Notes: a model not told the origin generated them from the letters alone. Positions 1 to 13,848 are shown, numbered from the stretch's first letter. The stretch: DNA of 20,000 nt from an uncultured virus (IMG/VR IMGVR_UViG_3300038423_000106) (IMGVR_UViG_3300038423_000106); one strand, 5' to 3'. Program-made: numbers and translations.

Positions 1-23
1 GTGAATACCAGGCTAGAGTCCAT
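1..23 (-). CDS. Start of the next gene (MDSSLVF...), truncated by the window edge; function unknown
   Basis: Strong RBS AGGAGG (29-34 on the minus strand) followed by ATG at 23. Confidence 0.6.
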
Positions 24-32
24 CGTTTCCTC

Positions 33-692
33 CTATGGTACGGTTACCGCCAGGGTCGCGCTCATGGCGCTGACTTTAGTTCCAAGCGCCGACTTGACGC
101 CATAGTACCGGGTCTGCCCCTTGACCGGCTTCGTGTCGACATAGGACGCCGCTGTGAGCCCGCTCGCCAGCTGTTTCGGGTCGGGCAGTTTCGGTTCCAC
201 TCCCCGGAACACATCGTAGCTGATTCCCTGCAAATTTACAGGCGTCCACTTCAACGGCACGCGGTTCTCCGTGACAGTCTCGACCGTCAGGCCGGTGGGC
301 GCCGGGGGCTGCGCGTCGGCTGGGATCGTGGCGCTCACCTCGTTTGACGGCCCTGAAAGGCTCGGGCTGGCGGTCGACAGATAGGCTTTGGCGACATACC
401 AGTAGGTCTGCAGAGCCGTCACCGCCGTATCGGTGTAGGAGCAGGTCGCGAGCGGCGAAGCATTCAGTGCCGTCGCGCTCTCCCCGCCGGAGGCCGTTCC
501 CTTGTAGAAATTAAACTGCACGCCCGCCGCCGTATCCGTGCATCCCCCGAGGGTAACGGAGTGCGCCGTCGCAGTGGCGGTGAGCGGGCGCGGCTCGATG
601 GAGGGCGGGGCAGGAGTGTTGGCGCGCTGGGCAGTCGGAGTCATACAGCCGACCAGGGCGAGCGAGAGAACTGCGGTGATGATGATTTTCAT
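33..692 (-). CDS. Lipoprotein with two FN3-like domains, 219 aa
   Basis: RBS AGGAG overlaps the upstream stop. Lipobox MKIIITAVLSLALVG|C, Pro-rich tether, and two FN3-like units (FNFYKG..SYTD..YWYVAKA..SGPSNEV; PPAPTGLTV..LKW..YDVFRG..SYVD..YYGV). Confidence 0.8.
   Translation of the reverse strand: MKIIITAVLSLALVGCMTPTAQRANTPAPPSIEPRPLTATATAHSVTLGGCTDTAAGVQFNFYKGTASGGESATALNASPLATCSYTDTAVTALQTYWYVAKAYLSTASPSLSGPSNEVSATIPADAQPPAPTGLTVETVTENRVPLKWTPVNLQGISYDVFRGVEPKLPDPKQLASGLTAASYVDTKPVKGQTRYYGVKSALGTKVSAMSATLAVTVP
227..242. promoter_or_regulatory. Palindrome copy 4 (CCTGCAAATTTACAGG)
   Basis: Core 228-241 has one mismatch to CTGCAAATTTGCAG. It is intragenic, about 200 bp upstream of the next gene start. 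Confidence 0.45.
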
Positions 693-699
693 GATTCTC

Positions 700-3192
700 C
701 TAGTGCACAGTCACAGACAATCCGGTTGGGGCGAGCGGGCCGCCCGTCAGCGGCGCGGCCGACATGAGGTCGATCAGCATCGCGTCACTTCTGCAATCGT
801 TCGGACCCTCGTTCGTCCATTGCACCGTCCCGTCGAGCGAAGGGCAATTTCCGTATGACGGACAAAATACTTGCCAGTTGGGAACCGTCGCGCCCGTCGT
901 CCCTCCGGCCGCCGTGAGGTAGACGTCGTTGTTCGGGTTGTTCGACACGGGGTAGACGGCCGATCCACCGGAGAACGCCGTGCTGGCGGACGGTGAAAAC
1001 CCGGCACGCAGTTGGTCGCATGATGCCTTCAGGTTCTTCCATGTAACCCCGCCGTCCACGCAGGAGGTGGCGCAGGCGGCGTCCCAATCAGGCTGCGTGC
1101 CGGAAGTGGTGCCAGCGGCGATGACCTGGAAGTCGTATTTCCCCGCGTTGTTCGAGGTCGGGTACATCGTGGCCCCGAGCGCGTAAGCCGCGCTCCCGGC
1201 CCACGCGGGCGAGGTCGAGCCGCGCGTCCCCATCATGTCCGTGCCGACCAATGCCCACTGGCCGTCCTGCGAGGCGTTCCCGATGTTGTTCTGCGCCTCG
1301 AAGCTCTGGTTCATCCCGGTGTTATAGATGTGCGAGAACCTATAGGTCGTTCCCAGCGGGCAAGTCCCGAGGCCCGTGCACTCTCCCACCACTTCACCGT
1401 AGTACGCCAGTCCAGTGAGTGCGCCGTTGGAGATCGTCGGAACCTGCGTGGCGAAGTCTACTATCGGAGGCGTATCCGTCAGCCCGGAATCGCGGTAGGA
1501 GTCATGGTGATCTGAAGGGAAGCCATTTGGCAGGATGTCCCGGCTCAACCATCCGGTTGAACCGCTACCGCCAATGGTCGGATAGGGCACTTCGTCAATC
1601 GTCCCGCTCACGCTCTGATAAACCATCGGCTGCGAGAAAAGATGCTGGTACTGGTCATTGTCCGCCCAGTAGTTCAAGTAGCCCTGCGCCTGGTGGCCGG
1701 AGGTGTGGCTGGCCCCGCTCGTCTGCGTGCTGACGTTGATGTTCAGCGTGGCTACTTGCCAAGTGTAGGTGTAGCAGTAGACGTCGGCCAACTGCCAGTA
1801 GGTCGAGTTCGGGGGAGCGTTCCCCGCCGTCGGGGTGGCGTAGACGTACTCGTAGTAGCTGTACGGCGCGCCGTGCGAGGGATCGTAAACCGTCTGGTGC
1901 GCGGGACTCGTCTTGGAATAGGTCTTGCCCGCGCTGTATGCCCCGTAGTACGTCGCGTTCGTGTTCAGGCAATTAGCCGTCCCCGGCGTGAGCACGGGCG
2001 TCCCGCCGCCATGCGTCGGCGTCAGCGACATGTAGGCCGAATTAAGGTCTGCTCCATTCCCGTGCAGCGTCATCAGGTCGGTCAAGGGGCATGGGTTGGT
2101 CCCGTACTTGCCGCAGATCACCGTGTCGGTAGTTGTCCAAGTGCCCGCGACGGTCGTGCCAGATCGCACCTGCCCGAGCCGAGTATTCAAAGCGTAATAT
2201 CCGGTTCCCGCTAAATACACTACAGCGTCGAATCCCGGCCCTTGCCCGTTGACTGAGCCAATGTTTGTCCACGTCACCCCTCCATCCGTGCAGGTCGAAG
2301 TGCAGGTCGACCACGTCGGCTCCGTGCCGGAAGTCGTTCCGCCGACGGTCGCCTGGAAGGCATGATTGGCGGAATTCCCCGTTTGCGGATAGATGAACGA
2401 AGTGTAGTCTCCGGTAACGTAGGCCGTGCTCCCCTTCCAATCCATCCCGCCCGCCATCGCAAGGGCTACTGAGCCGTCTGTCGCTGTCGTAAACTCCCCG
2501 TTCCATGTACTAAAGTAGGTTTTGGGGAAAGCGTTGCCAAGGTTCGCGTAAAGCGTTCGCGTGAACGTGTCTGTGCTCGGGTTGATCACGTCCTTGTAAA
2601 TGGTCAGACCGTCCGACCAAAGCTCGAAGATGGTGTACGCCTGTCCTCGGCTGAATACCTCCGCGCCCCCCGAGTTGAGCACGGTGCAGCCAGAAGTGCA
2701 CGGACTTCCGCTGATCGAGCCGCCGACGATCTGGCTCTTGGTCACGCCGGGATTCGAGGGCGAGATCGGTGTTCCGCCCGCTTCAGCAGCCCGGATCGCC
2801 GTCTTGTTTAGGTAATAGAGATAAGGGCCGCCTCCGACTGAGTAGACCATGAGCATGTTCGAGTTCTGCTCAAACAGATCGCGTTCTCCATCCGAGCCGA
2901 GTTGGAAGCTGTTGGTCGTCAGATGTGTACTTTGATCGGTCACAAGCAGCAGGAACGAGCCGAAGTCTTTATCCGTAGTGGCGGTGTTCGCTGGCGCGTT
3001 CGCCGCGAACGGTCCTGTTCCCGTCAGGAGGAAGCTAATGGGCGCTCCCGCGTGGCCCACTCCGACTCCCGCGACGCACCCGGATTCCGTCCCGACCTCG
3101 CAATTGTCCGTCCTCGCCGCGTAGGTCTGCGGCCCTTGCGCGAAACAGCAAGTCGTGAGCAGGACGCAGGCGAATTTGAGGAGGCTGCGCAC
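700..3192 (-). CDS. Secreted protein with CBM5/12-like repeats, possibly inserted in a beta-propeller, 830 aa
   Basis: Start reassigned to GTG at 3192 (MRSLLKFACVLLTTCCFA|Q), 2 bp after the upstream stop. Three W..S.AY..G..YP..N......GTT...P.W...C..DG.V.W.N repeats. YRFSH.YN and GNASQDGQWALVGTDM are TolB/propeller-like. Ends in PLAPTGLSVTVH. Confidence 0.65.
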   Translation of the reverse strand: MRSLLKFACVLLTTCCFAQGPQTYAARTDNCEVGTESGCVAGVGVGHAGAPISFLLTGTGPFAANAPANTATTDKDFGSFLLLVTDQSTHLTTNSFQLGSDGERDLFEQNSNMLMVYSVGGGPYLYYLNKTAIRAAEAGGTPISPSNPGVTKSQIVGGSISGSPCTSGCTVLNSGGAEVFSRGQAYTIFELWSDGLTIYKDVINPSTDTFTRTLYANLGNAFPKTYFSTWNGEFTTATDGSVALAMAGGMDWKGSTAYVTGDYTSFIYPQTGNSANHAFQATVGGTTSGTEPTWSTCTSTCTDGGVTWTNIGSVNGQGPGFDAVVYLAGTGYYALNTRLGQVRSGTTVAGTWTTTDTVICGKYGTNPCPLTDLMTLHGNGADLNSAYMSLTPTHGGGTPVLTPGTANCLNTNATYYGAYSAGKTYSKTSPAHQTVYDPSHGAPYSYYEYVYATPTAGNAPPNSTYWQLADVYCYTYTWQVATLNINVSTQTSGASHTSGHQAQGYLNYWADNDQYQHLFSQPMVYQSVSGTIDEVPYPTIGGSGSTGWLSRDILPNGFPSDHHDSYRDSGLTDTPPIVDFATQVPTISNGALTGLAYYGEVVGECTGLGTCPLGTTYRFSHIYNTGMNQSFEAQNNIGNASQDGQWALVGTDMMGTRGSTSPAWAGSAAYALGATMYPTSNNAGKYDFQVIAAGTTSGTQPDWDAACATSCVDGGVTWKNLKASCDQLRAGFSPSASTAFSGGSAVYPVSNNPNNDVYLTAAGGTTGATVPNWQVFCPSYGNCPSLDGTVQWTNEGPNDCRSDAMLIDLMSAAPLTGGPLAPTGLSVTVH

Positions 3193-3194
3193 AC

Positions 3195-4862
3195 TTAATG
3201 CACCGTCACGGTCAAGCCAGTCGGGGCGTTCGGCCCCGTAGCCGCAAACTGGTACGCGCCCACGTTCCACGCGCCAGTGGAAGGACGATTAACTCCGAGA
3301 ATGGCTGGAACGACTACAGTGTGATTGGTGGCGTTGTACGCCACGCCAGTGAACCCCTGAAGGCAGGCCGCCTTGGATACGGAATCGTTCAGTCCGTTGC
3401 AGAATGTCGCATTGTTCGTCCCGGCCCCGACCGTGGAATTACTGGATGCCGTGGGCGCGTAGTCGTTCGCTGACGTGTAGCCCTGCGTAGCGGCAAGAGT
3501 GGGCGTCATAAACAGATCAGTAGTTTCGCTACTGAATGAGCATCCGTCCATCGTGGAAGTGTAGGTCGTGATCCAGTGATTGTTCTGGGAGCTAACCGAT
3601 CCGGGAGCCGGAGCGGGGCAGGGCCATGCTGAATTGAACGGAGGATTCACGAAAGTGTTGTTATAAAAAGCCACATTCCCGCCGCCGATGGGAGGCGATG
3701 CTTGGCTGATGTTGAAGTAGTTCGAGTTCGCGTACAGGTCATGGATGACGTTGTTGAAGACGTAGTCTGTCTGTCCGGTAGGCGGGGCGAGCCACAGCGT
3801 GTTCGCGGAAAGCGCCTGGCTCCCGAGCGTCCCGATGTAACGGAAGATGTTGTTGTAGAAAAGATTCGGATCTGACGAGCCGTGGGACGTTTCCCCGTAG
3901 CACTGGAGCACGTCCGAGTGCGACGAGCCATCCGTCACGTTGTTCATATACTCCCAGAGATTGTCGTGAACCCGATAGCAGCCAGAAGATGAATTTTCTC
4001 CTTGGTTGTAGCGAACGACGTTGTAATTGAACTGATAAACGTCGCCTTTCATCGAAATCAGCGAGTACGGGTCGGAATCCGAACCGTCGATGACGTTGTA
4101 TTCATAGGTGATTCCGGGCTCCTGATTATAGCTGTAAAATGCGATCCCGCCGCCACCTTGCGTGCCAGCCGAAGTATGGGTCCATCCGTGAACGTAGTTT
4201 CTCGAAACAATGTGCCCGTTCGGGCTGCCGCTGGAGTTGAAGGTGAGCATGATCGCGCCACCTTCGTTCGATGATTGCGTGGTGTTCCAGCAGAACCCAG
4301 TGAACTCGAAATCGTCAAGGATGTTATAAACCGTGCCGCTGAAGGCAACCATGTCGTTGCCGTTCGTGACTTGGTAGGCGCAACTGCCGACCACGCTCGT
4401 GCTCGGCGAGTTGTCGCCCGTGAAAACGGGCCGCGTCCATCCCGTGCTCGGCCATCCGAGATCGACGCCGATGTACGTGTAATGACTGCTCGTGCCGCTC
4501 CAAGTGAAGTTGATGCCGCCACCGCCTGCGTATGGAGTCGCGGACGAGTTGCCGAAGTGGTAAGTCGATCCGCCCTCGATGATGATCCCGGTTCCAGCGG
4601 GAACGCCTGCTGATTGCACCGTGCCGCAAGTGGCCGTGCAGGTTGGCATCCCCGGAATGTGCAGCCACGGGCTTGATTCACTAGTGCCGGAATTGCTGTC
4701 CGACGCCCCGGAGAGCGACGAAGCGTAATAGCAAGAGGTCACGCCAAGCGAGGCAAGGGTGACCAACGCGCCCGAAGCATTCGGATAGTTCGTTCCATTG
4801 GGACAGGAGCCGCCAGCGGCAAAACAGGCCGCGCTCAGAAACAGGATAAGTACGCATCTCAT
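3195..4862 (-). CDS. Secreted right-handed parallel beta-helix protein (pectate-lyase/depolymerase-like), 555 aa
   Basis: Start MRCVLILFLSAACFA|A at 4862 (ATGA overlap). CYY.SS.SG.SDSNSGTSESSPW.H entry motif, Asn-ladder repeats (NYVH, YNVI, DNLW, NNIF, NNVI, NNTF), and C-terminal W.VGAYQF followed by PNAPTGLTVTVH. Confidence 0.78.
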   Translation of the reverse strand: MRCVLILFLSAACFAAGGSCPNGTNYPNASGALVTLASLGVTSCYYASSLSGASDSNSGTSESSPWLHIPGMPTCTATCGTVQSAGVPAGTGIIIEGGSTYHFGNSSATPYAGGGGINFTWSGTSSHYTYIGVDLGWPSTGWTRPVFTGDNSPSTSVVGSCAYQVTNGNDMVAFSGTVYNILDDFEFTGFCWNTTQSSNEGGAIMLTFNSSGSPNGHIVSRNYVHGWTHTSAGTQGGGGIAFYSYNQEPGITYEYNVIDGSDSDPYSLISMKGDVYQFNYNVVRYNQGENSSSGCYRVHDNLWEYMNNVTDGSSHSDVLQCYGETSHGSSDPNLFYNNIFRYIGTLGSQALSANTLWLAPPTGQTDYVFNNVIHDLYANSNYFNISQASPPIGGGNVAFYNNTFVNPPFNSAWPCPAPAPGSVSSQNNHWITTYTSTMDGCSFSSETTDLFMTPTLAATQGYTSANDYAPTASSNSTVGAGTNNATFCNGLNDSVSKAACLQGFTGVAYNATNHTVVVPAILGVNRPSTGAWNVGAYQFAATGPNAPTGLTVTVH

Positions 4863-5752
4863 TGGATCACCACGCAGATCACGTTCGACGGCGGACCTTC
4901 TTTTCCCGCAGAGTCCACTGCCGTTACGTAGTAGTCGTAGTTGTAGAACAGGGCTACTACCTGATCCGTATAGGTCACAGTCGGAGCCGTGACCGATCCG
5001 ATCTTCGTCATGCTGACCGGCGTGCTGCTTCCTGTGCAACTTCCGGTCGAAGGATAGCCACGATAGATATTGTAACTAGCGGCAGGATCACTTCCCGTAG
5101 GGGCGGTCCACGCGGGGAGCGTGTAGTGCGGAGCGAGCACGTAGCTGTATCTGTTGTTGAACCACTGGCCACCGATCAGAGAATAGAGCGTGACATACAT
5201 AGTCGAACCGTTGGCCGGGAACCCGGTCGCCTGAGTGCTCGTGAGAACGTTCCCCAGATTGCCGGACTGGATGTAATTGTTCCCGCCCACGGTGGTCCCT
5301 ATGTCGATCCAGTAGGCAGTTGCGCTCGTTCCTGCCGCCCATGTGAACGTTATGTGGTTTGTGTCCAGAGTCGAGTTGTTCGTCGGAGTCTGCATGACGG
5401 CGGCCCCGGCCGTTCCGTTCAGCGACGAATACGTGTAGACGCCGTGCTGCCATACGCCGCTCACCAGAGAGTACAGGGTGGCATAGACTGTTGTGCCGTT
5501 CAATGGGAGGCTCTGCACGGTGATAGTCAGAACGTTTCCCAGATTGCCGGATTGGTAGTAATTGTTCCCGCCAGCCGTCGTCCCGAGGTCGAGCCAGTAG
5601 GCCGTCGCCCCGCAGGAGGAGCAAGTCCAGTCGAACGTCACCGTGCTCCCGCTGAGTTGGGTTCCGGGTGTCGGCGTGGTGAGCGTGGCTTGCGGGAACG
5701 CCGCCGCGCAAGCGAGCCAGAGGAAGACTGCAAGTTTGCAGGTAATTTTCAT
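4859..5752 (-). CDS. Secreted protein with two tandem ~95-aa beta-sandwich repeats and a C-terminal FN3-like domain, 297 aa
   Basis: Signal peptide ending AAAFP|Q. Duplicated TF.W....ATAYW.D.GTT.GGNNY.QSGNLGNVLT...P.NG.T.Y.TLYSL..G.W. Terminal WTAP.....SYNIYRG...YTD.....YDYYVTAVDSAG.EGPPSN is FN3-like. Confidence 0.75.
   Translation of the reverse strand: MKITCKLAVFLWLACAAAFPQATLTTPTPGTQLSGSTVTFDWTCSSCGATAYWLDLGTTAGGNNYYQSGNLGNVLTITVQSLPLNGTTVYATLYSLVSGVWQHGVYTYSSLNGTAGAAVMQTPTNNSTLDTNHITFTWAAGTSATAYWIDIGTTVGGNNYIQSGNLGNVLTSTQATGFPANGSTMYVTLYSLIGGQWFNNRYSYVLAPHYTLPAWTAPTGSDPAASYNIYRGYPSTGSCTGSSTPVSMTKIGSVTAPTVTYTDQVVALFYNYDYYVTAVDSAGKEGPPSNVICVVIQ
5728..5741. promoter_or_regulatory. Palindrome copy 3 (CTGCAAGTTTGCAG)
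   Basis: One mismatch to the core. The reverse complement of 5726-5743 (ACCTGCAAACTTGCAGTC) matches 16771-16788 at 17/18. Lies in codons 4-9 of the 4859..5752 gene. Confidence 0.55.
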
Positions 5753-6645
5753 TGGTAGCCCGCCGCCGTCCAGAAGATCGTGCTCGTGACTTCCGTCGTG
5801 TCGCTCGACACGATAAGGAACCCGAATGCCGTCTGATTGACCACGTTCAGGAAGCCGTTGCCGAACCCGGCGGCGGCGCTCTTGCGCGTCACCTCCACGG
5901 CGTAGTTCGCGTCGCAGTAGGCAGCTCCGTTCGAGAACGTGACCTGATATGCCGCTTCAGGGGAGGAGCCGTACTGCTGCAACTGTCCGACGCCCGAGGC
6001 CACGTGGTTGTCACATGCCGTGGCTGCGGTCCCCGTCTGCCCGAGCAGAAAGAACGTAGGAGCGGGGGGTGGCGGAGCAGGAAAGGGCGCGCAGTTCGGG
6101 TATCCCGTGCTCAGCCATCCAGTAACCACCGGGGTCAGCGCTGGGCAGTTAGATTGGTAGATGCCTCCGAGCGAGTAGAGTTGCGGCGTGGCGAGCTTGG
6201 CCGTGATCACGGAAGGGTTCGTCGGCACGTACTGGTCGAAGTTACAAGCGCCGTTCGCGCACCAGTAGTTCGAGGTCTGCGGCTGCACGCACGCGTTGCC
6301 GTTCGCGGCGGGAGAGATCACGACGTTGTTCGAATCCTTTATGGTCAAAGCAAAACAAATGTTCATGGGATTCGTCGTGCTCGTGTTCGCCACCTGGCAG
6401 CCGCCCGTGATCGCCCCGTTCACTATCGGGCACACGGTCGGGTACGTGATCTGCTGCCCTCCGCCGTTCACCTGGTAGCTCACGGGGTTCCCGCCGCTGT
6501 CCGTGGCCTGCCAGACGAGTATCCCCGATGGCAGCAGGACTCCTCCAGCGCCGTATATGTTCGCGGCCGTGATGTTCATGAACGATTGGGAGAACGCGCT
6601 CCCGGCGAGCGCCGTCAGCAAAGCGATTTGAAGCAGTCGTTTCAT
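5749..6645 (-). CDS. Signal-peptide protein with C-terminal tail-fibre-tip-like domain, 298 aa
   Basis: Start MKRLLQIALLTALAGSAFS|Q at 6645 (ATGA overlap). C-terminal QQYG...VTFS...Y.DANYAV.VT...NQTA.GF.I......IFWTAAG resembles gp53-like fibre tips and the end of 13845..14378. Contains a Pro-rich linker. Confidence 0.6.
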   Translation of the reverse strand: MKRLLQIALLTALAGSAFSQSFMNITAANIYGAGGVLLPSGILVWQATDSGGNPVSYQVNGGGQQITYPTVCPIVNGAITGGCQVANTSTTNPMNICFALTIKDSNNVVISPAANGNACVQPQTSNYWCANGACNFDQYVPTNPSVITAKLATPQLYSLGGIYQSNCPALTPVVTGWLSTGYPNCAPFPAPPPPAPTFFLLGQTGTAATACDNHVASGVGQLQQYGSSPEAAYQVTFSNGAAYCDANYAVEVTRKSAAAGFGNGFLNVVNQTAFGFLIVSSDTTEVTSTIFWTAAGYQ

Positions 6646-8930
6646 TGCACCCCCGCCCCCCCGAAAACCGCACTCCCACCTATCACTTTGTTCGGACTCG
6701 ACAGTCCCGCCCAAGCCTCGACCAGGTTGTAGACGTTGACGCTCCCGAGGCCGGTGGCGAAGTCCCAGCCGGAAGTGGCGGGGTAGGCTGGTTGGTAGGC
6801 GCTGTCACTCGTGCTCAACACGCCGAAGTATTGATATGTGGAATCGTCGGGATCGTAGCAATTGACGTAAGTCGAGGCAGCTCCCGGATCACCACAACTT
6901 GTCGCGTTATCGCCTGCGGTGATGTCGTGAAAGACACACGAACTGCCTATTGAACTTCCAAGGCTTGCGTTGCACTGACTGTTTCCACCTGATCCGTATT
7001 CCGCCCGTGCTAATTGGTACAAAATAGGATTCGCAAGCCCCGACTGCGTTGTGCCGATCTTCTGGTTTATCAAAGCCTGAATCCCGGCCCAGATGGGCGT
7101 ACCCAAACTGGTCCCCAAAACGCCGCCCCAGAGCGTAGGAGGGTTGAGTGTGCCGCCAGTTCCATAGCAACCTTCGGAATCCGAGTTGCAATACATATAA
7201 AAATGCGTCCAAGTGCCTCCCCCGGAGAACATCGCCACGTCTGGCTGGTCGCGCACGCCATCTGAGGGATTGCCGAGAACGGATTGCCATGAAGGTTTCG
7301 GCCATCCGGCGCAAGTGCCGTTCACGACTGTGCCGCCAACGGGAACAGCCTGCCCGGTAGCGCAACTGCTCGGTCCTCCGCTGCCCGCGAGAATGGACTG
7401 GGAGTTTCCCGCTGTGTAAATCGCGCCTCCATAACCCGTGACAGGAAAGTTGCCATCCTTGATCGTGTTGCATACGCTAGTCGAGCCGTAGATTGGAATG
7501 CCGAGATACGAGGCTATGAGCGGGCTGGTGCAGGAATCGTCCCACGGAATCTCCGGCACGTAAGTGCCGCCTGCGGTGCCATACACCGAGTTATTGGTCG
7601 CGTTCCAATAGGAATTTATCGTTCCGGCGTAAGTGTCCCCGAAGTCCGTCCCGCCCACCGACGTGGCGTAGGGTGTCGAGCCAATCGCGTTCACGCTGAA
7701 GCCGAACACGGCAGAGAGGCCGTCGCTGCCAAAGCTGCAAATGCTCGCCCCCCAGTCCCCCGCGGCCACGAAAACTGAAATACCCTCCGACGCCGCCTGT
7801 TGTAACGCGTCATAATAAGCCAAGTTCGCGGCAGGCCCGTTCGCGGGTTCGCACAGTGCGTAACTGACGCTCATGATCGTCGGCGGGGAAGGCAGGTTGA
7901 CCAAGTTCTGAATCGCGATGATGATGCCGTCCCCAAATCCGCTGTCCCCGGCAAAGCAGGACGCGAGCACGAGATTGGCGCTCGGGGCTGCTGCGCTCGC
8001 CCACTCAACATCCACGGCGGCCTCAAGAACGTCAGGCGTGACGCCGGGATCGCTGCATGTAGGCTGCCCGCTGACCTGCGGGTGGGTCAGCGTTAGGGTG
8101 CTGGTGTAAGTGCTGAGTCCGCTAACCGAACGGAAATTTAGCCAGTCGCCATTCCACGGGCCACCCGAAGGTTCTTGCAAATCTGAATCTTCGACCAGCG
8201 TGATCGTCTGCCCCTGCCCGCTGATCCCGGAACTGAAGAGTGGGAGGAAACCGTAAATCGTCTCCAAATCGAACGGCATGACGTTTTGCAGTGTCCCGGC
8301 GCCATTAGTAAGAATTATCTGCGGCTCGGGGTTGAAGTTGCTCAGCCCCATGATGCCGACAATTGCGGGAGCCAAGGCAGCCGGGACTTGGGGGTTGCTG
8401 ACATTGCCCCTGTGGTTTTCGCTGGTCATTGGGCCGAGGCCCATGTTGCCATTCGGCTTCCTGCGGTTCACGGTCAGGTTGTGAATCTCGGTGTGGAAGG
8501 CGCCTGTGACCTGTCCCGCCGTACCCGAGAAATCTATCGTCAGATTGCTCGCGCCGTTGACCGTGAAGCCGTGCGACTTCAGCCATGTCGTGATGGCTTT
8601 CCGGTCGTCAGGATGCGTCGGCCACTGCGCGTTGAACTGAGCCGCCGTGAGCCATTTGCGGTAGTTCGGATGCTTTCGATCGTAGCGCGTCTCCACGTCG
8701 GCGGCCAGTGCTTGCGATTGTTCAGGAGCGCGGGCCAGCACCATGACCATGTGGTTCATGGCGAAGCTATCGGCCACCTTGCCCTTGTCGTTTGCCGGGA
8801 CGGTCGCCTCGGGCCTCGTGTTGCCAGCAAGCGTTGCCAGTTTGGTTTCGTCCACAGCAGAGGTCACGAGTCGGCGCGGGGTCTGCGCCATGACGCTCGC
8901 GGCCAGCAAGATCAGAAGGGTTATCCTCAT
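6642..8930 (-). CDS. S53 family (sedolisin/kumamolisin-like) serine-carboxyl peptidase with Pro-kuma activation domain and signal peptide, 762 aa
   Basis: Pro-domain P.YRKWLTAAQF...WL.SHGFTV...IDFSGTAGQV..AFHTEIH. Catalytic E-x3-D in EAAVDVEW (~8010-8024), oxyanion Asp in AAGDWG (~7755), nucleophile in GTSLGTP (Ser 7107-7109), and Ca-site motifs DITAGDN and GWDFATGLGS. Confidence 0.95.
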   Translation of the reverse strand: MRITLLILLAASVMAQTPRRLVTSAVDETKLATLAGNTRPEATVPANDKGKVADSFAMNHMVMVLARAPEQSQALAADVETRYDRKHPNYRKWLTAAQFNAQWPTHPDDRKAITTWLKSHGFTVNGASNLTIDFSGTAGQVTGAFHTEIHNLTVNRRKPNGNMGLGPMTSENHRGNVSNPQVPAALAPAIVGIMGLSNFNPEPQIILTNGAGTLQNVMPFDLETIYGFLPLFSSGISGQGQTITLVEDSDLQEPSGGPWNGDWLNFRSVSGLSTYTSTLTLTHPQVSGQPTCSDPGVTPDVLEAAVDVEWASAAAPSANLVLASCFAGDSGFGDGIIIAIQNLVNLPSPPTIMSVSYALCEPANGPAANLAYYDALQQAASEGISVFVAAGDWGASICSFGSDGLSAVFGFSVNAIGSTPYATSVGGTDFGDTYAGTINSYWNATNNSVYGTAGGTYVPEIPWDDSCTSPLIASYLGIPIYGSTSVCNTIKDGNFPVTGYGGAIYTAGNSQSILAGSGGPSSCATGQAVPVGGTVVNGTCAGWPKPSWQSVLGNPSDGVRDQPDVAMFSGGGTWTHFYMYCNSDSEGCYGTGGTLNPPTLWGGVLGTSLGTPIWAGIQALINQKIGTTQSGLANPILYQLARAEYGSGGNSQCNASLGSSIGSSCVFHDITAGDNATSCGDPGAASTYVNCYDPDDSTYQYFGVLSTSDSAYQPAYPATSGWDFATGLGSVNVYNLVEAWAGLSSPNKVIGGSAVFGGAGVQ

Positions 8931-9874
8931 TTCTGCACGACCGAGGCGCGGTGGCGCTTCACGCTGCCGCCGCCTGTATAGGTATAGGAAGCCACGTTGC
9001 TGTCTGCCGTGTAGGAAGTTCCGGCGACCACGTTGATTGTTTCGGCCACGGAAACGGTGAAACTCTCAGCAAACGAGCCTGTAGTACAGGCCAATCCAAA
9101 TCCATTCGTCACCGGATTCGTTGGGCTGACCGCATAACATGTTACGAACGTGGCCGACGAACTGGAACAGCTCACGGTCTGCGGCACCGTCCCGCTGCTC
9201 GGCGTGCAAGTCGGCGTGGCGGCCTTGGTCACGCTCCCACTGGTCTTGAAGGCGGCGACGTTCGACTCCGCATCGTCGCCATCGGCGCAGGTCCACACCA
9301 TGTCGATGGCCCCGCTGCCTGTGTTGTGGTAGTAGGCGTCTGCCTGCGAAGCGGTGGAAGGGTTATAGTCGTCGTTCGCTATGGTGCCCGTGCTTACCGA
9401 ACTGCAATCTCCGCTGCCGTCGAACCCTCCATAGGTCGAGATGAACAAGTCTCCGGACTGCGAAGGCAACAGGCTGCCGGGGTCTTGGCCGTTGCCATTG
9501 TTATTATTGCTGCCATCCGCCGGATTGAATCCAGTTGGCGTCCCGCTGAAGACCTGCACGGTGAGGAAGGCGCCGCCGCTTGCGCATGAAACTGTATCGG
9601 TTCCGCCGGAGAACGAGCCATAGGCGTAGTATGTCCAAAGGTAGTCCGCATCGGCATTGGCCTCGATGGCGTGCCAGCCCAGGCTTAAGGTATCTGTGGG
9701 CGCGTTGCCGATAATGCTGCACGATGCCTCGATCAGCGTAGCCGTGCCCGACCAAGTGACCGTGCAGGACGGCGGCGAATTCGTATAGTCGTCGCAGTTC
9801 CCGATGAGAGTCTGGGCGCTGGCCGCAGAACCAGCGAGCAGAAGCAAGGCGAGGATGAGTAAGATTCGTCGCAT
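8927..9874 (-). CDS. Secreted protein with C-terminal CHB_HEX_C/Fn3-associated-like domain, 315 aa
   Basis: Signal peptide MRRILLILALLLLAGSAASA|Q. AATPT.TPSSGT..QTV......CY...FTVS.AETINVVA....SNVASYTYT matches that domain pattern. Ends in a basic tail KRHRASVVQK. Confidence 0.65.
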   Translation of the reverse strand: MRRILLILALLLLAGSAASAQTLIGNCDDYTNSPPSCTVTWSGTATLIEASCSIIGNAPTDTLSLGWHAIEANADADYLWTYYAYGSFSGGTDTVSCASGGAFLTVQVFSGTPTGFNPADGSNNNNGNGQDPGSLLPSQSGDLFISTYGGFDGSGDCSSVSTGTIANDDYNPSTASQADAYYHNTGSGAIDMVWTCADGDDAESNVAAFKTSGSVTKAATPTCTPSSGTVPQTVSCSSSSATFVTCYAVSPTNPVTNGFGLACTTGSFAESFTVSVAETINVVAGTSYTADSNVASYTYTGGGSVKRHRASVVQK

Positions 9875-9876
9875 GG

Positions 9877-12800
9877 CTAATAGGTATATTCGATAATGAC
9901 TGCGAGACTTGTGCTGTGCGTGTCGGGCGTGCCCATCACCGGATCAATGCCCGTCCCGGTCGTCCAGCTCGCGTTCGACACCGAGCACGAGGAACTGTAG
10001 GCATAGCTGTTCCCGCACTGAAGCGTGCCGCTGCAAACCGTCGTGCCCGTTCCAGCCGAGCCGAATGACGGATTGACGGTCGTGGTGTTGGACGAGTAGT
10101 CGCTCCGGCACTTCACCGCCGTGATCGTCCGCGTCACTCCAGAATCGTTGTAGCAGGTGTTGTTCGAGATGGCGTCGTCGCCAGCCGTCAGCACGTTCGA
10201 GGTTCCCGTGCCGCCCCAGACCTCCGTGCACGATCCCTTGCTGTACTGTGCGGCAAGCTGCGTGGCCGTGACTGTGGCGTTCGCCATCATCGCGCCCGTG
10301 ATGAGGTTCGTGCAGGTGCTCGACAGGTTCTTGCTGCCGTCGGTGCAAACTGGCAACGAAGCGGTTAGTCCGCTAAAATTACCGCCAGTCGCGCTCACCG
10401 TGCTCGCCAGAGTCAGGGCTCCCGCCGCGCTCAAATGGCCTTCCAAAGTCCCGACCGTGTACACGCCCGCCGACACCGACCCGCCCGAGTACCAGCGCAC
10501 GATGTCGCCCGTGCCCGAAACGTCGAACACAAGTTCCCCGATGCCGCCAGTGGAAGTGCCCGCCGCTCCGATCAAAGCGCCGATGCTCGTGTTGTTGTTC
10601 GTCGAGTTCGTGTTCTCGATCACGTAAGGCGCGGTGAGGTTCCCGGTTTCAACTCCGGCCCGCGTGACCACATCTCCTGCTGCAACCTCTGTGATCGTCG
10701 TTGCCGTCGCTGATCCCGTCAGCTTCGATTCCGCCATGCTCGTGATGTCGCCGTTCACGACCGCACTGCTGGTCACCGTCTGCGTCGATCCGGCGAAGTG
10801 GGCTATGCCAGCCCCAGGCGAGGAAGCATTGACCACGTTAGCCGTCACCACGCCACTATCATGCAGCAAGCAGGTCGTGCTCGTGACCGTGCAGTCAATC
10901 AGGTGTCCGGTTGTCGGCACAGCCGCGAACCCCTGAATCGTGTTGCTCGCAGTCGCTCCGCTCGCCCACGTCGTCGTGAAGTTTCCGGTCGCCGGGAACA
11001 TGGACAAGCTACCAGCAGTGCCGCTCACGCCCAAGGTCGGCGTATAGGTCAAGGCGGGCGTTGCGCCAGCCAGAAGCTCGCCTGCGCCGCCCGGTAAATC
11101 GCCAGCCGCAATCGCCGTCGAGTTGAACACTCCCGCAACCGACGTGGCGTGCAGGACGTGCGTAGTCGTCGTGTCGGAGTTCGCGCCGACCATGTACTCG
11201 CTCGTGATCGGGAACGTGAGCGTGACCGCACCGGACGAGGCCGGGAAAGTCAGGGTTGTCAGGTTGCTGCCAGTCCCGGTTACTAATTGGTTGCTGGCCG
11301 TGCCGAGGTACAGCGGCTGGTTGAACGTGGCCTTGTTCGAGGCGAAGGTGAACTTCGGGCTGCCGCTGTCCGCGCTGCCCAGCGATCCGCCAGCCGCCAC
11401 CGCGAGGTTTCCGCTCGCGTCCAGCGTGGAAGTCGTCGAGGGCGTTTGCAGTGTGGTCGTGCCGCCGCCCGTGACCAAGGCCGTGCTCGTCAGCGAGCCG
11501 GAACTGACGACCGTTACCGTTCCAGAACCGCCCGGCGTGGAGCAGGTTCCGTCGCTCTTGAGATAACCAGAGCAGGAGCCGGAGCCGAACAGTGCGATTA
11601 CATTGGAGGAAGTTGCTGGCGTGATGTTCGTGGAAGTGGAGAACGCCGCCAAGGGCGTGCCGCTGGAGTAGCCGGACGAAGTGACCGTGCCGCTGCTCGT
11701 GCCGACCGCCGCGCCGTTGACATACAATCCAGCCGCATTGATCGTGCCCGCGCCCTTCGCCCCGCCCGTCGCGCTGCCCCAAACCGAGCCAGTTGGCTCT
11801 GTGGCGAGGAGTTGCCCAGAAATTGTTACCGCGCCAGCAAACGTCGCCGCCTGATTCTGATCGAGGAGTAATGCCTGCGTCAGAGTCGTGGAGCTGTTCG
11901 GAGTCGTGTAGAACTTCAACTGCGAGCCGAAAGCCGAACTGGTCCAAGCCTGCGTCGTCCACGCGCTGATGATCGCGCCGGTAGCTTCCGTGTCCGAAGT
12001 CGAATCGGAACCGCCGAACTGTAGCGTGCCCATGATGACGCCGGAACCAAGCGCTGCTCCCGTCGGAACGGCGGACAATGAGATGATTCCGCCGTCAGCG
12101 GAGAGTCCCGTCCCGGTCGTGCCGACGTTGTGGAAGTGCGCCGAAGTGTCGTTGCTGCCATAAACCTCAAAATGGGCGTCGATGGCCTGCGAGCCGCGCA
12201 CGCCAAGTTGCAGCGTTGGCAAGCTGTCGTAGCCGGTGTCGTTGTAGTAGAAATCCGCAGGAATGCCAGAGAGCAAGCCTCCCGATCCCGCAAAGAGCAC
12301 GCCATACTGCGAGATGCCGCTGTCGGTGATAGCAGGGCTGCTCAAGCCGGTGACGAATGTCGGGGAAGTCGCGAGCACGAAGTTGCCGGTGCCCGTCGTG
12401 TTCCCCGTCGCGTCCGATGGAGTGATGGCCGAGATCGTCTCCGTGATCGTGGGCGAGGAATAGGCGTAGTGCGGGATGCCCGAGGAAGGCGTCACCGCGA
12501 ACAGGCCGTGGTAAGAAGTCACGCCCGAGGCCGGAGCCTCCCAGCAAACGGAGCCTGTGGGCTGATTGGCTACGCAGTTATCCGCGCCTTGAGTCAGCGC
12601 GAAGTAGCCCGCGCCCGAGCCGGAGAAGGTCGCGCCGGGAAAGGTCTGTGCCGCCGTCCATGTGTTCGCGTGGCCCAAATTCAGCGAGGCCACCACCGCG
12701 CCAGTGGTAGGAGTTACGGTAAGCGTGCTGTCGCTGTTCGAGACCGAGAAGACTGCGCCTCCGCTTCCGTTCGCCACCCATGACCGCACGCCAGCGGTCG

Positions 12801-13848
12801 TGCTCGAAAGCACGTAACCCGTCGTTTCTGGATTGCCCAGGGCCGGTTCCGCGCCCACCGACGCCGCCGTCGCCGAAATCGCCCCAGCCGTGTTGAGGAT
12901 GCTCGTACCGTCAGGCTTAACCCCACCCAAAGTGGAGGAAGTGGCGGCTGGCAGCGAGTATGCCGCCGTGCTGCATCCGCTGGACGAATCACTCAAGTCA
13001 GCGCATGCCGGGCGCGATTGGTGGGGCAGGCCGCTCGTGTCGATGTAACTCACCCAGTTGTGAAGTGAGGAAGTAATGGAGTTGACTCCACCAAGCGCTC
13101 CAGCACTGGCCGCTGGCAGCGTATAGGTGGACGAAAACGCGCCCGTGCCAAACCCGTTGCTGCCGGAAGTGAATGTACCGGTGACCTGCCCGACCGGAGT
13201 GTTGGGCGAACAACTTCCGCCGATCTGGCACGCCGTTCCGTTCACCGTCGTGGACGGCGCCGTCCCGGTCAGGCCACTCCACGGTGCCGCCGTCGCCTGA
13301 ATCACGCCCGAGTTGATCGGGACGATGGAGCCGCCCGTGGACACCTGGAACGGCCCCGAGACCATCGGGGAGTTGGCGACGAGCGCCGACCAGTTGGTGG
13401 AGCTAGAACCTGCGCACGAGCCGAAGGTGGTCGCCGTGGACCCGGCGGCGACTGACAACTCGCACTGGCTGGCCGCGGTAGCCAAGGTGGCCCCGGCCCC
13501 GGACTGTCCCTGCATCTGCCATGCTGATCCGGTGTTCGTCATCAGTACGCTCGCCCCGGCCTGCAGCGCTCCGAGCGACACTCCCCCGTTGCCCTGGTTC
13601 ACGGATATAGGGTGCGCGACCCCGTTCACGCTGAGCGTGGGACTCGCCCCGGAGTTCTGGTTGACCCCGGTGAGCAATACCGAGTCCCCGGCGGCTGGCG
13701 TGAACGACGGCGTGGTAACGCAAACGTAAGCCGTAGACGATGTGGAGGAGTCGGGGCAGTACCACGTGAAGGCCGTGCCCGTCTTCTGGCTCCAAGCGAA
13801 CGGGGCCAGCAGGAGCAGCGCCAGGAACCATTTGAGTCTCATCATCAT
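9877..13848 (-). CDS. Large Gly/Ser/Thr-rich tail-fibre/adhesin-like protein with signal peptide, ~1323 aa
   Basis: Start MMMRLKWFLALLLLAPFAWS|Q (ATGA overlap with the upstream stop). Fibre-like motifs include YTLPAASAGALGGV, YSLPAATSSTLGGVK, TGTGNFVLATSPT, GGAKGAGTINAAGLYVNG and SGTVT repeats. Confidence 0.7.
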   Translation of the reverse strand: MMMRLKWFLALLLLAPFAWSQKTGTAFTWYCPDSSTSSTAYVCVTTPSFTPAAGDSVLLTGVNQNSGASPTLSVNGVAHPISVNQGNGGVSLGALQAGASVLMTNTGSAWQMQGQSGAGATLATAASQCELSVAAGSTATTFGSCAGSSSTNWSALVANSPMVSGPFQVSTGGSIVPINSGVIQATAAPWSGLTGTAPSTTVNGTACQIGGSCSPNTPVGQVTGTFTSGSNGFGTGAFSSTYTLPAASAGALGGVNSITSSLHNWVSYIDTSGLPHQSRPACADLSDSSSGCSTAAYSLPAATSSTLGGVKPDGTSILNTAGAISATAASVGAEPALGNPETTGYVLSSTTAGVRSWVANGSGGAVFSVSNSDSTLTVTPTTGAVVASLNLGHANTWTAAQTFPGATFSGSGAGYFALTQGADNCVANQPTGSVCWEAPASGVTSYHGLFAVTPSSGIPHYAYSSPTITETISAITPSDATGNTTGTGNFVLATSPTFVTGLSSPAITDSGISQYGVLFAGSGGLLSGIPADFYYNDTGYDSLPTLQLGVRGSQAIDAHFEVYGSNDTSAHFHNVGTTGTGLSADGGIISLSAVPTGAALGSGVIMGTLQFGGSDSTSDTEATGAIISAWTTQAWTSSAFGSQLKFYTTPNSSTTLTQALLLDQNQAATFAGAVTISGQLLATEPTGSVWGSATGGAKGAGTINAAGLYVNGAAVGTSSGTVTSSGYSSGTPLAAFSTSTNITPATSSNVIALFGSGSCSGYLKSDGTCSTPGGSGTVTVVSSGSLTSTALVTGGGTTTLQTPSTTSTLDASGNLAVAAGGSLGSADSGSPKFTFASNKATFNQPLYLGTASNQLVTGTGSNLTTLTFPASSGAVTLTFPITSEYMVGANSDTTTTHVLHATSVAGVFNSTAIAAGDLPGGAGELLAGATPALTYTPTLGVSGTAGSLSMFPATGNFTTTWASGATASNTIQGFAAVPTTGHLIDCTVTSTTCLLHDSGVVTANVVNASSPGAGIAHFAGSTQTVTSSAVVNGDITSMAESKLTGSATATTITEVAAGDVVTRAGVETGNLTAPYVIENTNSTNNNTSIGALIGAAGTSTGGIGELVFDVSGTGDIVRWYSGGSVSAGVYTVGTLEGHLSAAGALTLASTVSATGGNFSGLTASLPVCTDGSKNLSSTCTNLITGAMMANATVTATQLAAQYSKGSCTEVWGGTGTSNVLTAGDDAISNNTCYNDSGVTRTITAVKCRSDYSSNTTTVNPSFGSAGTGTTVCSGTLQCGNSYAYSSSCSVSNASWTTGTGIDPVMGTPDTHSTSLAVIIEYTY

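Follow-up and report, generated by a model that had tools for sequence, protein, structure and literature searches.

The particles of tailed phages are generally considered to be assembled entirely in the cytoplasm, and to our knowledge all characterised tailed phages make and fold their fibres there, without an export signal. At least one report has taken a lack of signal peptides (SPs) to favour a phage origin of fibre-like proteins (PMC6199706). The locus described here, from an uncultured virus (IMG/VR IMGVR_UViG_3300038423_000106; the whole stretch analysed, 20,000 nt, is referred to as the window), raises the question of why a baseplate operon should continue directly into eight SP-bearing genes (positions 33..13848). 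Part of the host-recognition gear of this virus seems to mature outside the cytoplasm, the compartment where particles are built.

Layout of the locus and origin of the DNA

The fourteen genes considered (G1 to G14) are all located on the minus strand, and G1 to G6 encode baseplate and fibre proteins without SPs. G1 (19076..19999), whose 5' end lies outside the window, encodes a baseplate hub (phrog_196, E 4e-35) with no SP-like N-terminus visible. It is followed by genes for a gpV-like spike or plug protein (G2, 18399..19079; PF18352, E 9e-13), a baseplate wedge subunit with an N-terminal extension (G3, 16957..18399; phrog_120, E 2e-20, residues 362-469), a Baseplate J-like wedge protein (G4, 15527..16762; PF04865, E 3e-15; phrog_6, E 2e-39) and a DUF2612 baseplate protein (G5, 14394..15527; PF11041, E 8e-21). 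G6 (13845..14378) encodes a short fibre of 177 aa without cysteine (phrog_1396 tail fiber, E 3e-5); alignment shows a conserved N-terminal part of ~95 aa and a small C-terminal knob, with homologues at the same position in related viruses.

The eight genes that follow (G7 to G14) possess seven Sec-type SPs and one lipobox. Their starts were re-assigned (GTG in the case of G13), and the coordinates agree with a sequence-only reading of this DNA in which the SP genes are joined to the baseplate operon by ATGA overlaps or gaps of 2-7 bp. Overlaps of 4 nt and ATGA type occur at G6/G7, G8/G9, G9/G10, G10/G11 and G11/G12 (five of the eight gene junctions between G6 and G14), with gaps of 2 nt at G7/G8 and G12/G13 and of 7 nt at G13/G14; the chain begins inside the late fibre gene G6. 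Consensus scans, which are a weak test, detected nothing promoter-like on the coding strand, and terminator-like sites were about as many as chance predicts (13, with 13.3 expected). GC3 is 0.71-0.81 for the SP genes and 0.85-0.93 for the baseplate genes, and the lower value of the former fits an acquired accessory block.

The next gene, for a 117-aa membrane protein, starts at 1..23 (minus strand; contig ORFs). Beyond the window it is followed by a spanin-like gene (phrog_7686, Rz-like, E 4e-4; phrog_1501) and then DUF5675 (PF18925). Other downstream genes, on this or a 98%-identical record, encode RusA, HNH, exonucleases, a replication initiator and DnaB, and there is a divergently transcribed gene for an HTH regulator. 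The sequence is catalogued as viral, and the phage origin claimed in the sequence-only reading was upheld, the SP block standing between baseplate and fibre genes on one side and a spanin-like and early-gene region on the other. The 98%-identical record (G001) carries G10-G14 and then replication genes; it has a different SP gene at the G9 position, and the central ~1.2 kb of its G12 is replaced.

Using G5, 49 related viral loci were fetched. An SP gene is present among the first four genes after DUF2612 in 22 of the 26 loci of the metagenomic DUF2612 clade, a succession for which the sequence-only reading had proposed to search. By tblastn with G5, G7 and G10, no cultured close relative was found in the collection of cultured and deposited phages: G5 gave only distant matches (24-37% identity), for G7 the sole matches were two uncultured records, over 6% of the protein, and G10 had no match. 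The prophages identified by a scan of genome contigs with G5, in Paenibacillus, Brevibacillus, Pelotomaculum and a Clostridia genome, were all distant and gave no host assignment. The sole organism name in the cluster-member listing is Candidatus Acidiferrum sp.; the host is probably, if weakly so, from Acidobacteriota.

In contigs from three further runs, of peat or wetland origin, every bin of the window is represented (30 of 30), and six of the seven junctions that link one SP gene to the next are bridged (G13/G12, G12/G11, G11/G10, G10/G9, G9/G8 and G8/G7). No bridging contig was present for G6/G7 among the pieces listed (31-letter rule). Misassembly of the block is unlikely, because the contigs of other runs cover all bins and bridge these six junctions. 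Contigs of an RNA-library run (X19), a library that may contain DNA, fall on 25 of 30 bins, with none on 2669-3335, 4003-4669 and 8005-10005.

Signal peptides and paired cysteines

SPs were called with a heuristic of our own rather than SignalP, which looks for a positively charged n-region together with 8-16 residues of hydrophobic core and a small-x-small site. All eight of G7-G14 were positive and none of G1-G6 (0/6), which bears out two statements of the sequence-only reading, that every gene after the short fibre gene G6 begins with an SP, one of them (G14) with a lipobox, and that the baseplate genes with visible starts lack SPs. The same reading counted six mature starts at Gln, one at Ala and one lipobox. 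Its Ala (G12) and lipobox (G14, lipid Cys) stand, and its count of Gln was close, this residue following the best cleavage site in G7, G8, G9, G10 and G13, with G11 ambiguous.

As a control, which proved noisy, a permissive version of the heuristic was applied to ORFs in the related loci, with every start codon tried. In the distant clade it scored 18/129 upstream and 7/72 downstream ORFs as SP-like. In the metagenomic clade it scored 40/148 downstream ORFs. The run of SP genes G7-G14 is beyond chance, because even this permissive version scores only 18/235 upstream plus-strand ORFs there.

The mature proteins contain 22 (G7), 10 (G8), 14 (G9), 10 (G10), 4 (G11), 12 (G12) and 18 (G13) cysteines, and G14 has two besides its lipid Cys, so that the count is even in all eight. 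Even counts also occur in 26 of the 27 relatives that are complete and carry an SP, compared with 64 of 104 baseplate homologues without SPs (Fisher p 3e-4). This signature points to oxidative folding, as would be expected of disulfide-bonded extracytoplasmic proteins. A small-x-small/Gln site was identified in 124/132 SP proteins of the family sharing the N-terminal domain of G10 (G10N) and in 52/57 of the G7 family. The predicted export of G7-G14 looks real, because mature cysteine counts are even in these proteins and in nearly all complete relatives.

Predicted products of the exported genes

G10 (5749..6645) is predicted to be an exported fibre protein consisting of an SP, an anchor-type N-terminal domain and a short C-terminal part. 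From the family alignment and a structure model, G10N (6136..6588, residues ~20-170) is a beta-sandwich with conserved Cys. Relatives were gathered by a scan with an alignment of the family (A2); scans with single proteins (P0221 and P0093) found few. The family comprises at least 441 cluster representatives at E<=1e-3, with a common plan of SP, conserved N-domain and variable rest. Among the 150 listed, matches start at residues 1-20 in nearly all and protein lengths range from 84 to 1886 aa; by the heuristic, an SP is present in 138 of these best 150. In 16 viral loci the order hub, V, wedge, J, DUF2612 and G6-type fibre is followed directly by an SP-G10N gene; in 13 loci the distance from the fibre gene is between -4 and +17 nt, and all 19 copies carry an SP. 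G10N identity among the 16 loci (41-64%) is similar to that of the baseplate proteins. The G10-type gene is a fixed member of the baseplate module in this phage lineage.

The G10N model has a pLDDT above 90 for residues 20-145. Its nearest folds are the tail and neck fibres of cyanophage A-1(L), the tail tips of Bxb1 and Ur-lambda and the N-terminal domains of the P22/Sf6 tailspikes. Foldseek scores against the PDB are weak (E is 0.015 with the tail fibre of A-1(L) and 0.15-0.2 with the P22/Sf6 domains), and VIA Z values of 8.3, 7.4, 7.2 and 6.6 over 82-94 residues lie in a range that possibly reflects just a common beta-sandwich. Eight viral models in BFVD match at E<=1e-3, those with names including a collagen-like protein and a pectate-lyase spike; at weaker E, tail-fibre and minor-tail proteins are also found. 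By its model, the G10N fold resembles the docking ends of phage fibres. A subclade of G10N proteins without SPs starts one residue ahead of the cleavage point of SP-bearing members, and one of its members carries Pectate_lyase_3, a tailspike-type architecture. A conserved N-terminal anchor followed by a variable distal part was found for G10 only, G7 and G12 being without one.

G7 (9877..13848; 1323 aa) is predicted to be a mosaic fibre-like protein, with modules common to SP proteins located in the structural modules of other phages. It has no match in Pfam, PHROG or PDB sequences and lacks the G10N anchor domain; 76 mosaic homologues were identified, 61 of them with an SP by the heuristic. 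Its Cys-rich C-terminal module of ~140 aa (G7C, 9877..10302) is shared at 58-87% identity with 24 viral contigs and forms the very C-terminus in 34 of the 34 homologues having it. In other phage lineages, 22 of 24 G7C proteins carry an SP; one such protein is located inside a siphovirus-type tail module and two adjoin major head protein genes. The two families meet in one locus (L071), where a single SP protein of 2054 aa begins with G10N and ends with G7C. The structure model of G7C is poor (pLDDT 44).

Two further products resemble enzymes. G9 (6642..8930) is a candidate protease of the pro-kumamolisin/sedolisin type: residues 63-199 match the activation domain Pro-kuma_activ (PF09286, E 5e-21), as expected ahead of an S53 catalytic domain, and a weak subtilase-type NCBIfam match (E 0.003) was obtained. 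Pfam gave no catalytic-domain match up to E 5 and the PDB no sequence match; a Gly-Thr-Ser motif in the translation may belong to the Ser-Glu-Asp active site expected of sedolisins. G12 (3195..4862) is predicted to be a right-handed parallel beta-helix (Pel9A/DUF1565-like) and is a candidate polysaccharide-degrading enzyme. The ESM Atlas placed it near beta-helix and pectate-lyase clusters (features 0.97, structure TM 0.58-0.68) that carry PF13229, PF22842 and PF07602, the nearest being bacterial secreted beta-helix proteins, commonest in Acidobacteriota. Direct Pfam search gave no match, no anchor domain was seen, and PDB sequence search returned one chance-level row.

G8 (8927..9874; 315 aa) has no family match in Pfam, PHROG or NCBIfam. 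G11 (4859..5752) consists of two tandem repeats of ~95 aa, with an internal direct repeat of 89 nt at 82% identity, and an FN3-like end; its C-terminal 80 aa resemble small SP proteins in two of the related loci (L006 and L017). G13 (700..3192; 830 aa, three small repeats) matches phrog_20658 (E 1e-10, residues 649-722), with only weak Atlas matches (TM <0.5) and an empty PDB sequence search. Loose-threshold Pfam and NCBIfam searches gave nothing useful for G7, G8, G10, G11 and G13. No homologue of G8, G9, G12 or G13 was identified in the loci fetched with G5. G12 and G13 share a C-terminal tail, which occurs in no other protein or locus compared; a recombination joint at this tail was considered and dropped, many third codon positions being different and a repeat search being negative. 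G14 (33..692), a lipoprotein of 219 aa with FN3-like domains (weak fn3 match, E 0.07), is encoded two genes upstream of the weak Rz-like spanin gene. Outer-membrane spanins are typically small proline-rich lipoproteins that pair with a spanin of the inner membrane, and are smaller than 219 aa.

Competing explanations and comparison with known systems

The reading we favour, to which we give slightly less than an even chance, is that the locus is the distal tail and host-surface module of an uncultured peat myovirus, with products routed via the host Sec system. It is held just as tentatively, at a little short of evens, that these fibres and enzymes leave the cytoplasm, acquire stabilising disulfides and either become part of the particle or do their work at lysis. 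The proteins would cross the membrane unfolded, lose their SPs to signal peptidase I (G14 would be lipidated instead), then fold in the oxidising periplasm and, if fibres, oligomerise there. Once the inner membrane is opened by holin or the cell bursts, anchor-bearing G10, and perhaps G7, could dock on finished tails, probably on or beside the short SP-less fibre G6. Protease-like G9, the G12 beta-helix and binding-type G8, G11 and G13 may ride on this scaffold or act free on the envelope and matrix, and G14 would remain membrane-anchored. The locus resembles known tailspikes and receptor-binding proteins in its tail-module location (overlaps to baseplate genes, G10 position, G7C contexts); the point of difference is cytoplasmic folding without an export signal, at odds here with the eight SPs and even cysteines. 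An option raised in the sequence-only reading, that fibre and enzyme subunits are exported, fold in the periplasm and attach at or after lysis, thus gains support for export and fibre-type maturation (G10 in 16 relatives, its anchor-like fold, tailspike-type homologues without SPs, even cysteines), its last step being the tentative one. Several observations count against the favoured reading. G6 is already a complete SP-less fibre with a knob-type end, and the exported proteins are perhaps dispensable for adsorption; G8, G9, G12 and G13 lack homologues in relatives, and G9 is swapped at 98% identity; G12 is nearest to bacterial secreted proteins and has no anchor, and G7 lacks that of G10N; SP-gene GC3 is lower, G10N fold scores are weak and SP calls come from a home-made heuristic.

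A rather unlikely but serious alternative is that the proteins are exported late products outside the particle, acting on the envelope of the dying cell and, once released at lysis, stripping or masking receptors and matrix polymers. Progeny would then not be trapped on debris and neighbouring cells would be accessible; superinfecting phages may also be excluded, with G14 as a membrane-anchored blocker. That export is well supported agrees with this, as do the resemblance of G9 and G12 to free secreted enzymes without an anchor, a gene set that differs between 98%-identical phages, the lower GC3 and the presence of SP-less G6. It leaves unexplained, however, why G10N is fibre-anchor-like, conserved like baseplate proteins and fixed in place in 16 relatives, why SP-less homologues have tailspike architecture, and why SP proteins occur inside structural modules of unrelated phages. 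The second option of the sequence-only reading divides here: a late-expressed secreted module is live for G8, G9, G12 and G13, and a domesticated tail-derived machine finds no support, since the same phage has genes for RusA, exonuclease, a replication initiator and DnaB. A tailocin or extracellular contractile injection system is likewise unsupported, this being a virus record with those genes and HNH; the stretches of DNA covered hold no head genes.

Lysogenic-conversion cargo (morons), that is, surface or secreted proteins expressed from a prophage to the benefit of the lysogen and sited at a hot spot behind tail-fibre genes, is improbable. Composition and presence are unlike those of core genes (GC3, absence of G8, G9, G12 and G13 in relatives, the G9 swap), the divergent HTH regulator may mean a temperate phage, and Porphyromonas gingivalis phages offer a precedent in five SP genes with Gln at +1 (PMC10367356). 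Yet the promoter or terminator expected of such cargo was not seen for G7-G14, there is no intergenic space, 4-nt overlaps join most junctions, such cargo does not usually reach anything like 13.8 kb, the G10 family belongs to the conserved module rather than being a sporadic insert, and no integrase is apparent in the parts examined of these incomplete genomes (29 kb and 33 kb). It is more improbable still that the hydrophobic N-termini are not working signals, being mis-set starts or cytoplasmic-side tethers on ordinary cytoplasmic fibres. The predictor is home-made and several ORFs have alternative upstream starts, but the re-assigned starts yield overlapping stop/start junctions, n-h-c architecture with small-x-small/Gln recurs in hundreds of homologues with unrelated mature N-termini, the even-cysteine signature is present, and SP-less homologues have their first residue just where the mature proteins are predicted to start. 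That host DNA, or a chimera made in assembly, has been attached to a phage tail operon is scarcely credible: the contig is metagenomic and G12-like proteins are commonest in bacterial clusters, but phage genes flank both sides, G001 carries G10-G14 and then replication genes, contigs of three other runs cover every bin and cross six of the seven SP-gene junctions, and this gene order recurs in 16 further viral contigs.

A broader possibility, viewed with somewhat more doubt than belief, is that in a large group of soil and peat phages of several tail types, with hosts that are probably Acidobacteriota, the last step of virion assembly takes place outside the cytoplasm, Sec-exported receptor-binding fibres and spikes being pyroglutamate-capped and disulfide-linked in the periplasm and docking on finished tails only once lysis breaches the inner membrane. 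An SP would then be a normal feature of fibres in this host group and not the mark of a non-structural gene. If fibres are exported across a host group, the rule of cytoplasmic assembly fails, pipelines that sort structural from auxiliary genes would mislabel host-range genes in soils, and host-range prediction must include secreted proteins; such fibres would also represent adaptation to acid peat and provide binders and enzymes of unusual stability. Even the modest reading is unusual, with ~13.8 kb of a late operon devoted to secreted proteins.

In the multi-fibre and multi-tailspike clusters of myoviruses, several receptor-binding proteins encoded behind baseplate genes are docked via conserved N-terminal anchors and assembled in the cytoplasm. 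The present locus is similar in that fibre- and depolymerase-type genes directly follow baseplate genes, G10 has a conserved N-domain and modules are exchanged in mosaic fashion; it differs in that every member has a Sec or lipoprotein SP and paired cysteines. The docking parts of P22/Sf6, A-1(L), Bxb1 and Ur-lambda provide the nearest folds to G10N, which is unlike them in its conserved Cys and SP, with no sequence similarity and weak scores. Exported proteins of tailed phages include secreted and SAR endolysins, spanin lipoproteins, Llp of T5 and proteins of the lambda Lom-Bor type near fibre genes. Like these, the present genes are late or fibre-adjacent Sec or Lol genes, G14 having a lipobox and lying near a spanin-like gene, but the former are one or two small proteins with established roles in lysis or exclusion, whereas here there are eight, the longest of 1323 aa, with features of fibres, a protease and a beta-helix. 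Addition of fibres after export is not known to us from any tailed phage, and a literature search, covering papers without their supplementary files, returned none on SPs of tailed-phage tail fibres. In filamentous phages, the receptor-binding protein pIII has a Sec SP and folds with disulfides in the periplasm. It is thus comparable as an adsorption-type protein, with the difference that those phages are tailless and assemble at the membrane; the gIII signal peptide is named as such in a published report (PMC9402515). Five SP genes of P. gingivalis phages, of unknown function and with Gln at +1, are read as host-surface modifiers in the account given of them (PMC10367356), and a 'Q-rule' has been described for signal peptidase I substrates with Gln at +1 (PMC5837995). 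The proteins of the P. gingivalis phages and those predicted here are alike in being phage-encoded signal peptidase I substrates with Gln at +1; the former have a Bacteroidota host and are not linked to fibre families or a tail operon, whereas here fibre homologues have a fixed place in the baseplate module and slight indications point to a probable host in Acidobacteriota. Relative to the literature, what appears to be new is the presence of predicted SPs on relatives of tailed-phage fibres that are fixed in the baseplate module.

Operon layout and phage origin

All long ORFs of the window are carried on the minus strand. Read from the high-coordinate end, the first six genes (G1 to G6; 19999 down to 13845) are, judged by homology, a simple myovirus baseplate set: a hub protein (G1; phrog_196, E 4e-35), a gpV-like protein (G2; Pfam/PHROG family matches), a wedge protein (G3; 16957-18399) with homology confined to residues 362-469, members of the Baseplate_J (G4) and DUF2612 (G5) families, each by family match, and a 177-aa fibre (G6; phrog_1396, E 3e-5). 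The first ~360 residues of G3 form an extension beyond the wedge homology and are Ig-like in sequence character. G7 to G14 follow (13848 down to 33); with starts re-assigned, each overlaps its predecessor by 4 nt or is separated from it by a short gap, the gaps being 2, 2 and 7 nt. On the coding strand of the window a consensus scan identified nothing promoter-like, and terminator-like sites were at chance level (13 observed versus 13.3). GC3 is 0.71-0.81 in G7 to G14, which encode proteins with signal peptides (SPs), versus 0.85-0.93 in the baseplate genes.

The window sits in a 29.4-kb virus record. Inspection of its flanks, suggested by the sequence-only reading, showed Dit-like and Pam3-plug-like tail genes upstream of the baseplate set; after G14 there follow, in order, a 117-aa membrane protein, a weak match to an Rz-like spanin, a DUF5675 protein and another SP protein, with an HTH regulator, a PAPS-reductase-like gene, RusA and HNH beyond them on the opposite strand. 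In a second viral record (G001), 98% identical over the shared parts, G10 to G14 are followed by exonucleases, a replication initiator and DnaB. Every window bin was covered by contigs of three other peat/wetland runs, which also spanned all but one of the seven junctions within the SP block. The stretch G5 to G7 was present in 20 of the 21 runs among the matches listed, from 18 studies, the labelled runs being peat or wetland. The block G7 to G14 is phage DNA; host DNA or a misassembly, which the same reading had named among its refuting cases, is not borne out given the junction-bridging contigs, the second record and the phage genes on both sides. Contigs of metatranscriptome library X19, for which DNA carry-over is possible, fall on 25 of the 30 window bins and include baseplate genes, G7, G13 and one contig spanning the G11/G10 junction.

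Signal peptides and paired cysteines

SPs were called with a self-written n-h-c plus small-x-small rule, not with SignalP. By this rule all eight proteins of G7 to G14 were positive versus none of the six of G1 to G6, in agreement with the earlier observation that SPs run throughout the block and are lacking upstream. G14 possesses a lipobox. The mature proteins of G7 to G13 have 22, 10, 14, 10, 4, 12 and 18 cysteines, respectively, and G14 has two in addition to the lipid-modified one; the counts for G1 to G6 are 1, 2, 1, 5, 4 and 0. Disulfide-bonded extracytoplasmic proteins show paired cysteines. The number was even for 26 of 27 relatives that are complete, carry an SP and terminate in the module at the C-terminus of G7 (binomial p 4e-7), versus 64 of 104 SP-less homologues of G2, G4 and G6 (Fisher p 3e-4). 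We infer from this parity a second, independent mark of export, probably reflecting disulfides.

Among the homologous SP proteins collected (P0001-P0226), Gln lies directly after the small-x-small site in 124 of 132 members of the G10 family and 52 of 57 of the G7 family, and it is also the usual residue there in G7 to G13 themselves. This 'Q-rule' (Gln at +1) has been described as specific to Bacteroidetes (PMC5837995). The hosts, however, are probably Acidobacteriota, judging by the GC content (50-65%), by the Atlas taxa and by a single organism name, Candidatus Acidiferrum; the rule may reach beyond Bacteroidota. Elsewhere on the same phage (L064, beyond the window), small SP-type proteins are encoded at 1789-2307 (plus strand), after the spanin-like/DUF5675 genes, and at 5932-6282 (minus strand), among early genes; neither had a family match above the curated cut-off.

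The G10 and G7 families

A search with residues 1 to ~170 of G10, SP included, gave matches to 441 cluster representatives (E<=1e-3). Of the best 150, which are 84-1886 aa long, nearly all match from residues 1-20 of both proteins onward; an SP was called in 138 of the 150 by the self-written rule, most of the other 12 being visibly truncated. Alignment of this conserved N-terminal domain (G10N) revealed eight conserved cysteines, six of them invariant and the other two nearly so. The order hub, gpV, wedge, Baseplate_J, DUF2612, G6-type fibre and SP-bearing G10N gene was found in 16 IMG/VR loci, in 13 of which the last two genes are separated by -4 to +17 nt. All 19 G10N genes in these loci encode an SP, and G10N identity across them (41-64%) is as high as that of the neighbouring baseplate proteins. 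The SP protein is therefore a fixed member of the tail module of this lineage. The window departs from this order in that G7, G8 and G9 sit between G6 and G10.

A small subclade of G10N proteins has no SP and starts Met-Ala one residue before the point at which its SP-bearing relatives would be cut, a start that confirms their predicted cleavage site. Pectate_lyase_3, a domain that usually forms the body of tailspikes, is present in one member. The subclade further shows the SP to be an addition to a probable fibre or spike anchor.

An AlphaFold model of G10N, built on 53 sequences, is a beta-sandwich with pLDDT >90 for residues 20-145. Foldseek searches of the PDB returned the tail fibre of cyanophage A-1(L) (E 0.015) and the N-domains of the P22/Sf6 tailspikes (E 0.15-0.2), while the wide VIA-align search returned the A-1(L) neck fibre (Z 8.3) and the tail tips of Bxb1 (Z 7.4) and Ur-lambda (Z 7.2). 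Against viral models there were eight Foldseek matches at E<=1e-3, the named ones being a collagen-like protein and a pectate-lyase spike. These matches are singly weak but of one kind, namely N-terminal docking parts of phage appendages.

G7 had no family match in Pfam, PHROG or PDB sequence searches. Its 76 homologues are mosaic, 61 having an SP, and the module shared most often is the last ~140 residues (G7C; 9877-10302). G7C occurs at 58-87% identity in 24 viral contigs, within otherwise unrelated proteins, and forms the extreme C-terminus in all 34 homologues that have it; such conservation and invariably terminal placement are what a shared receptor-binding tip or an intramolecular chaperone would show. 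In other viral contigs 22 of the 24 proteins carrying G7C have an SP. Neighbours that PHROGs could name place one of these proteins in a siphovirus-type module, flanked by tape-measure-sized and by tail-assembly/minor-tail genes, and two others beside major head protein genes. In L071, another viral contig, a single SP protein of 2054 aa opens with G10N and closes with G7C, a layout that, by its domains, is that of a putative long fibre.

SP genes following DUF2612 in relatives, for which the sequence-only reading had proposed a search, were found in a sister clade fetched through DUF2612: an SP gene was among the first four genes after it in 22 of 26 loci. None of eight distant DUF2612 loci, which resemble Bacillota prophages in a genome contig search, had an SP gene there on a protein >150 aa. 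In the sister clade (L003-L042) a fibre of ~330 aa is followed by a conserved SP-less protein of ~132 aa (e.g. L010:8904-9302) and then by large SP proteins (e.g. L010:9277-12228), whose mature N-termini share a short conserved motif unlike G10N; a Pfam search gave no match. The arrangement suggests a second anchor system, parallel to the first.

Accessory genes and possible roles of the SP proteins

G9 has a pro-kumamolisin activation domain (Pfam search), its catalytic domain being unconfirmed by further searches. G12 is a Pel9A/DUF1565-type beta-helix protein with nearest clusters that are bacterial, most commonly from Acidobacteriota, and the three small repeats of G13 are similar to a PHROG annotated as head decoration. 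G8 could be assigned to no family. G11 consists of two tandem repeats and an FN3-like end; an 89-nt direct repeat of 82% identity (5235-5323 and 5520-5608) marks a duplication of a ~95-aa domain within the protein. No homologue of G8, G9, G12 or G13 was identified in the related loci. Another SP gene takes the position of G9 in G001, where the central part of G12 (3486-4716; L060 2667-3926 in G001) also differs completely over ~1.2 kb between flanks of 98% identity. Both positions resemble sites of frequent cassette exchange. The lack of homologues in relatives, the replacements in G001 and the lower GC3 therefore mark G8, G9, G12 and G13 as a fast-changing accessory set. G12 and G13 share a C-terminal tail of ~13 residues (3195-3240 and 700-745, minus strand), resembling the opening strand of a truncated FN3 domain; the motif recurs in the full FN3-like domain of G14. 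Many third codon positions differ between the two at the DNA level, which makes the tail a conserved peptide rather than a recent DNA repeat. It was absent from all other proteins and loci compared, and could serve as a docking strand.

At the level of sequence, these comparisons show export signals of a working type, a disulfide signature and a phage late-operon context for the SP proteins, and a predicted fibre ancestry for G10. The earlier proposal that exported fibre and enzyme subunits join the particle thus stands as regards export and the ancestry of G10; its remaining step, the docking of exported, oxidatively folded fibres on tails at or after lysis, with enzymes riding along or free, is one that we favour tentatively, at somewhat under an even chance. 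The SP proteins would pass through Sec, lose their signal peptides by cleavage, perhaps have the N-terminal Gln cyclised, and fold under oxidising conditions in the periplasm. Fibres bearing the anchor would dock on tails when the holin joins cytoplasm and periplasm, or after release, and the enzymes would either ride along on the tails or act free. A main weakness of this reading is that the SP-less G6 may be sufficient for adsorption.

A second reading, less likely than the first, is that the SP proteins are exported and do not attach to virions, acting in receptor or matrix stripping, in exclusion or as public-good enzymes. That the SP genes are moron cargo is unlikely, and artefacts make up the small remainder.

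Literature searches returned no description of signal peptides on the fibres of tailed phages. Phage proteins known to be exported include endolysins, spanins, exclusion lipoproteins and pIII of filamentous phages. Related published cases are five SP genes of P. gingivalis phages, which obey the Bacteroidetes Q-rule and are reported as being of unknown function (PMC10367356), and the CAZymes of soil prophages, 5% of which carry SPs (PMC13507307).
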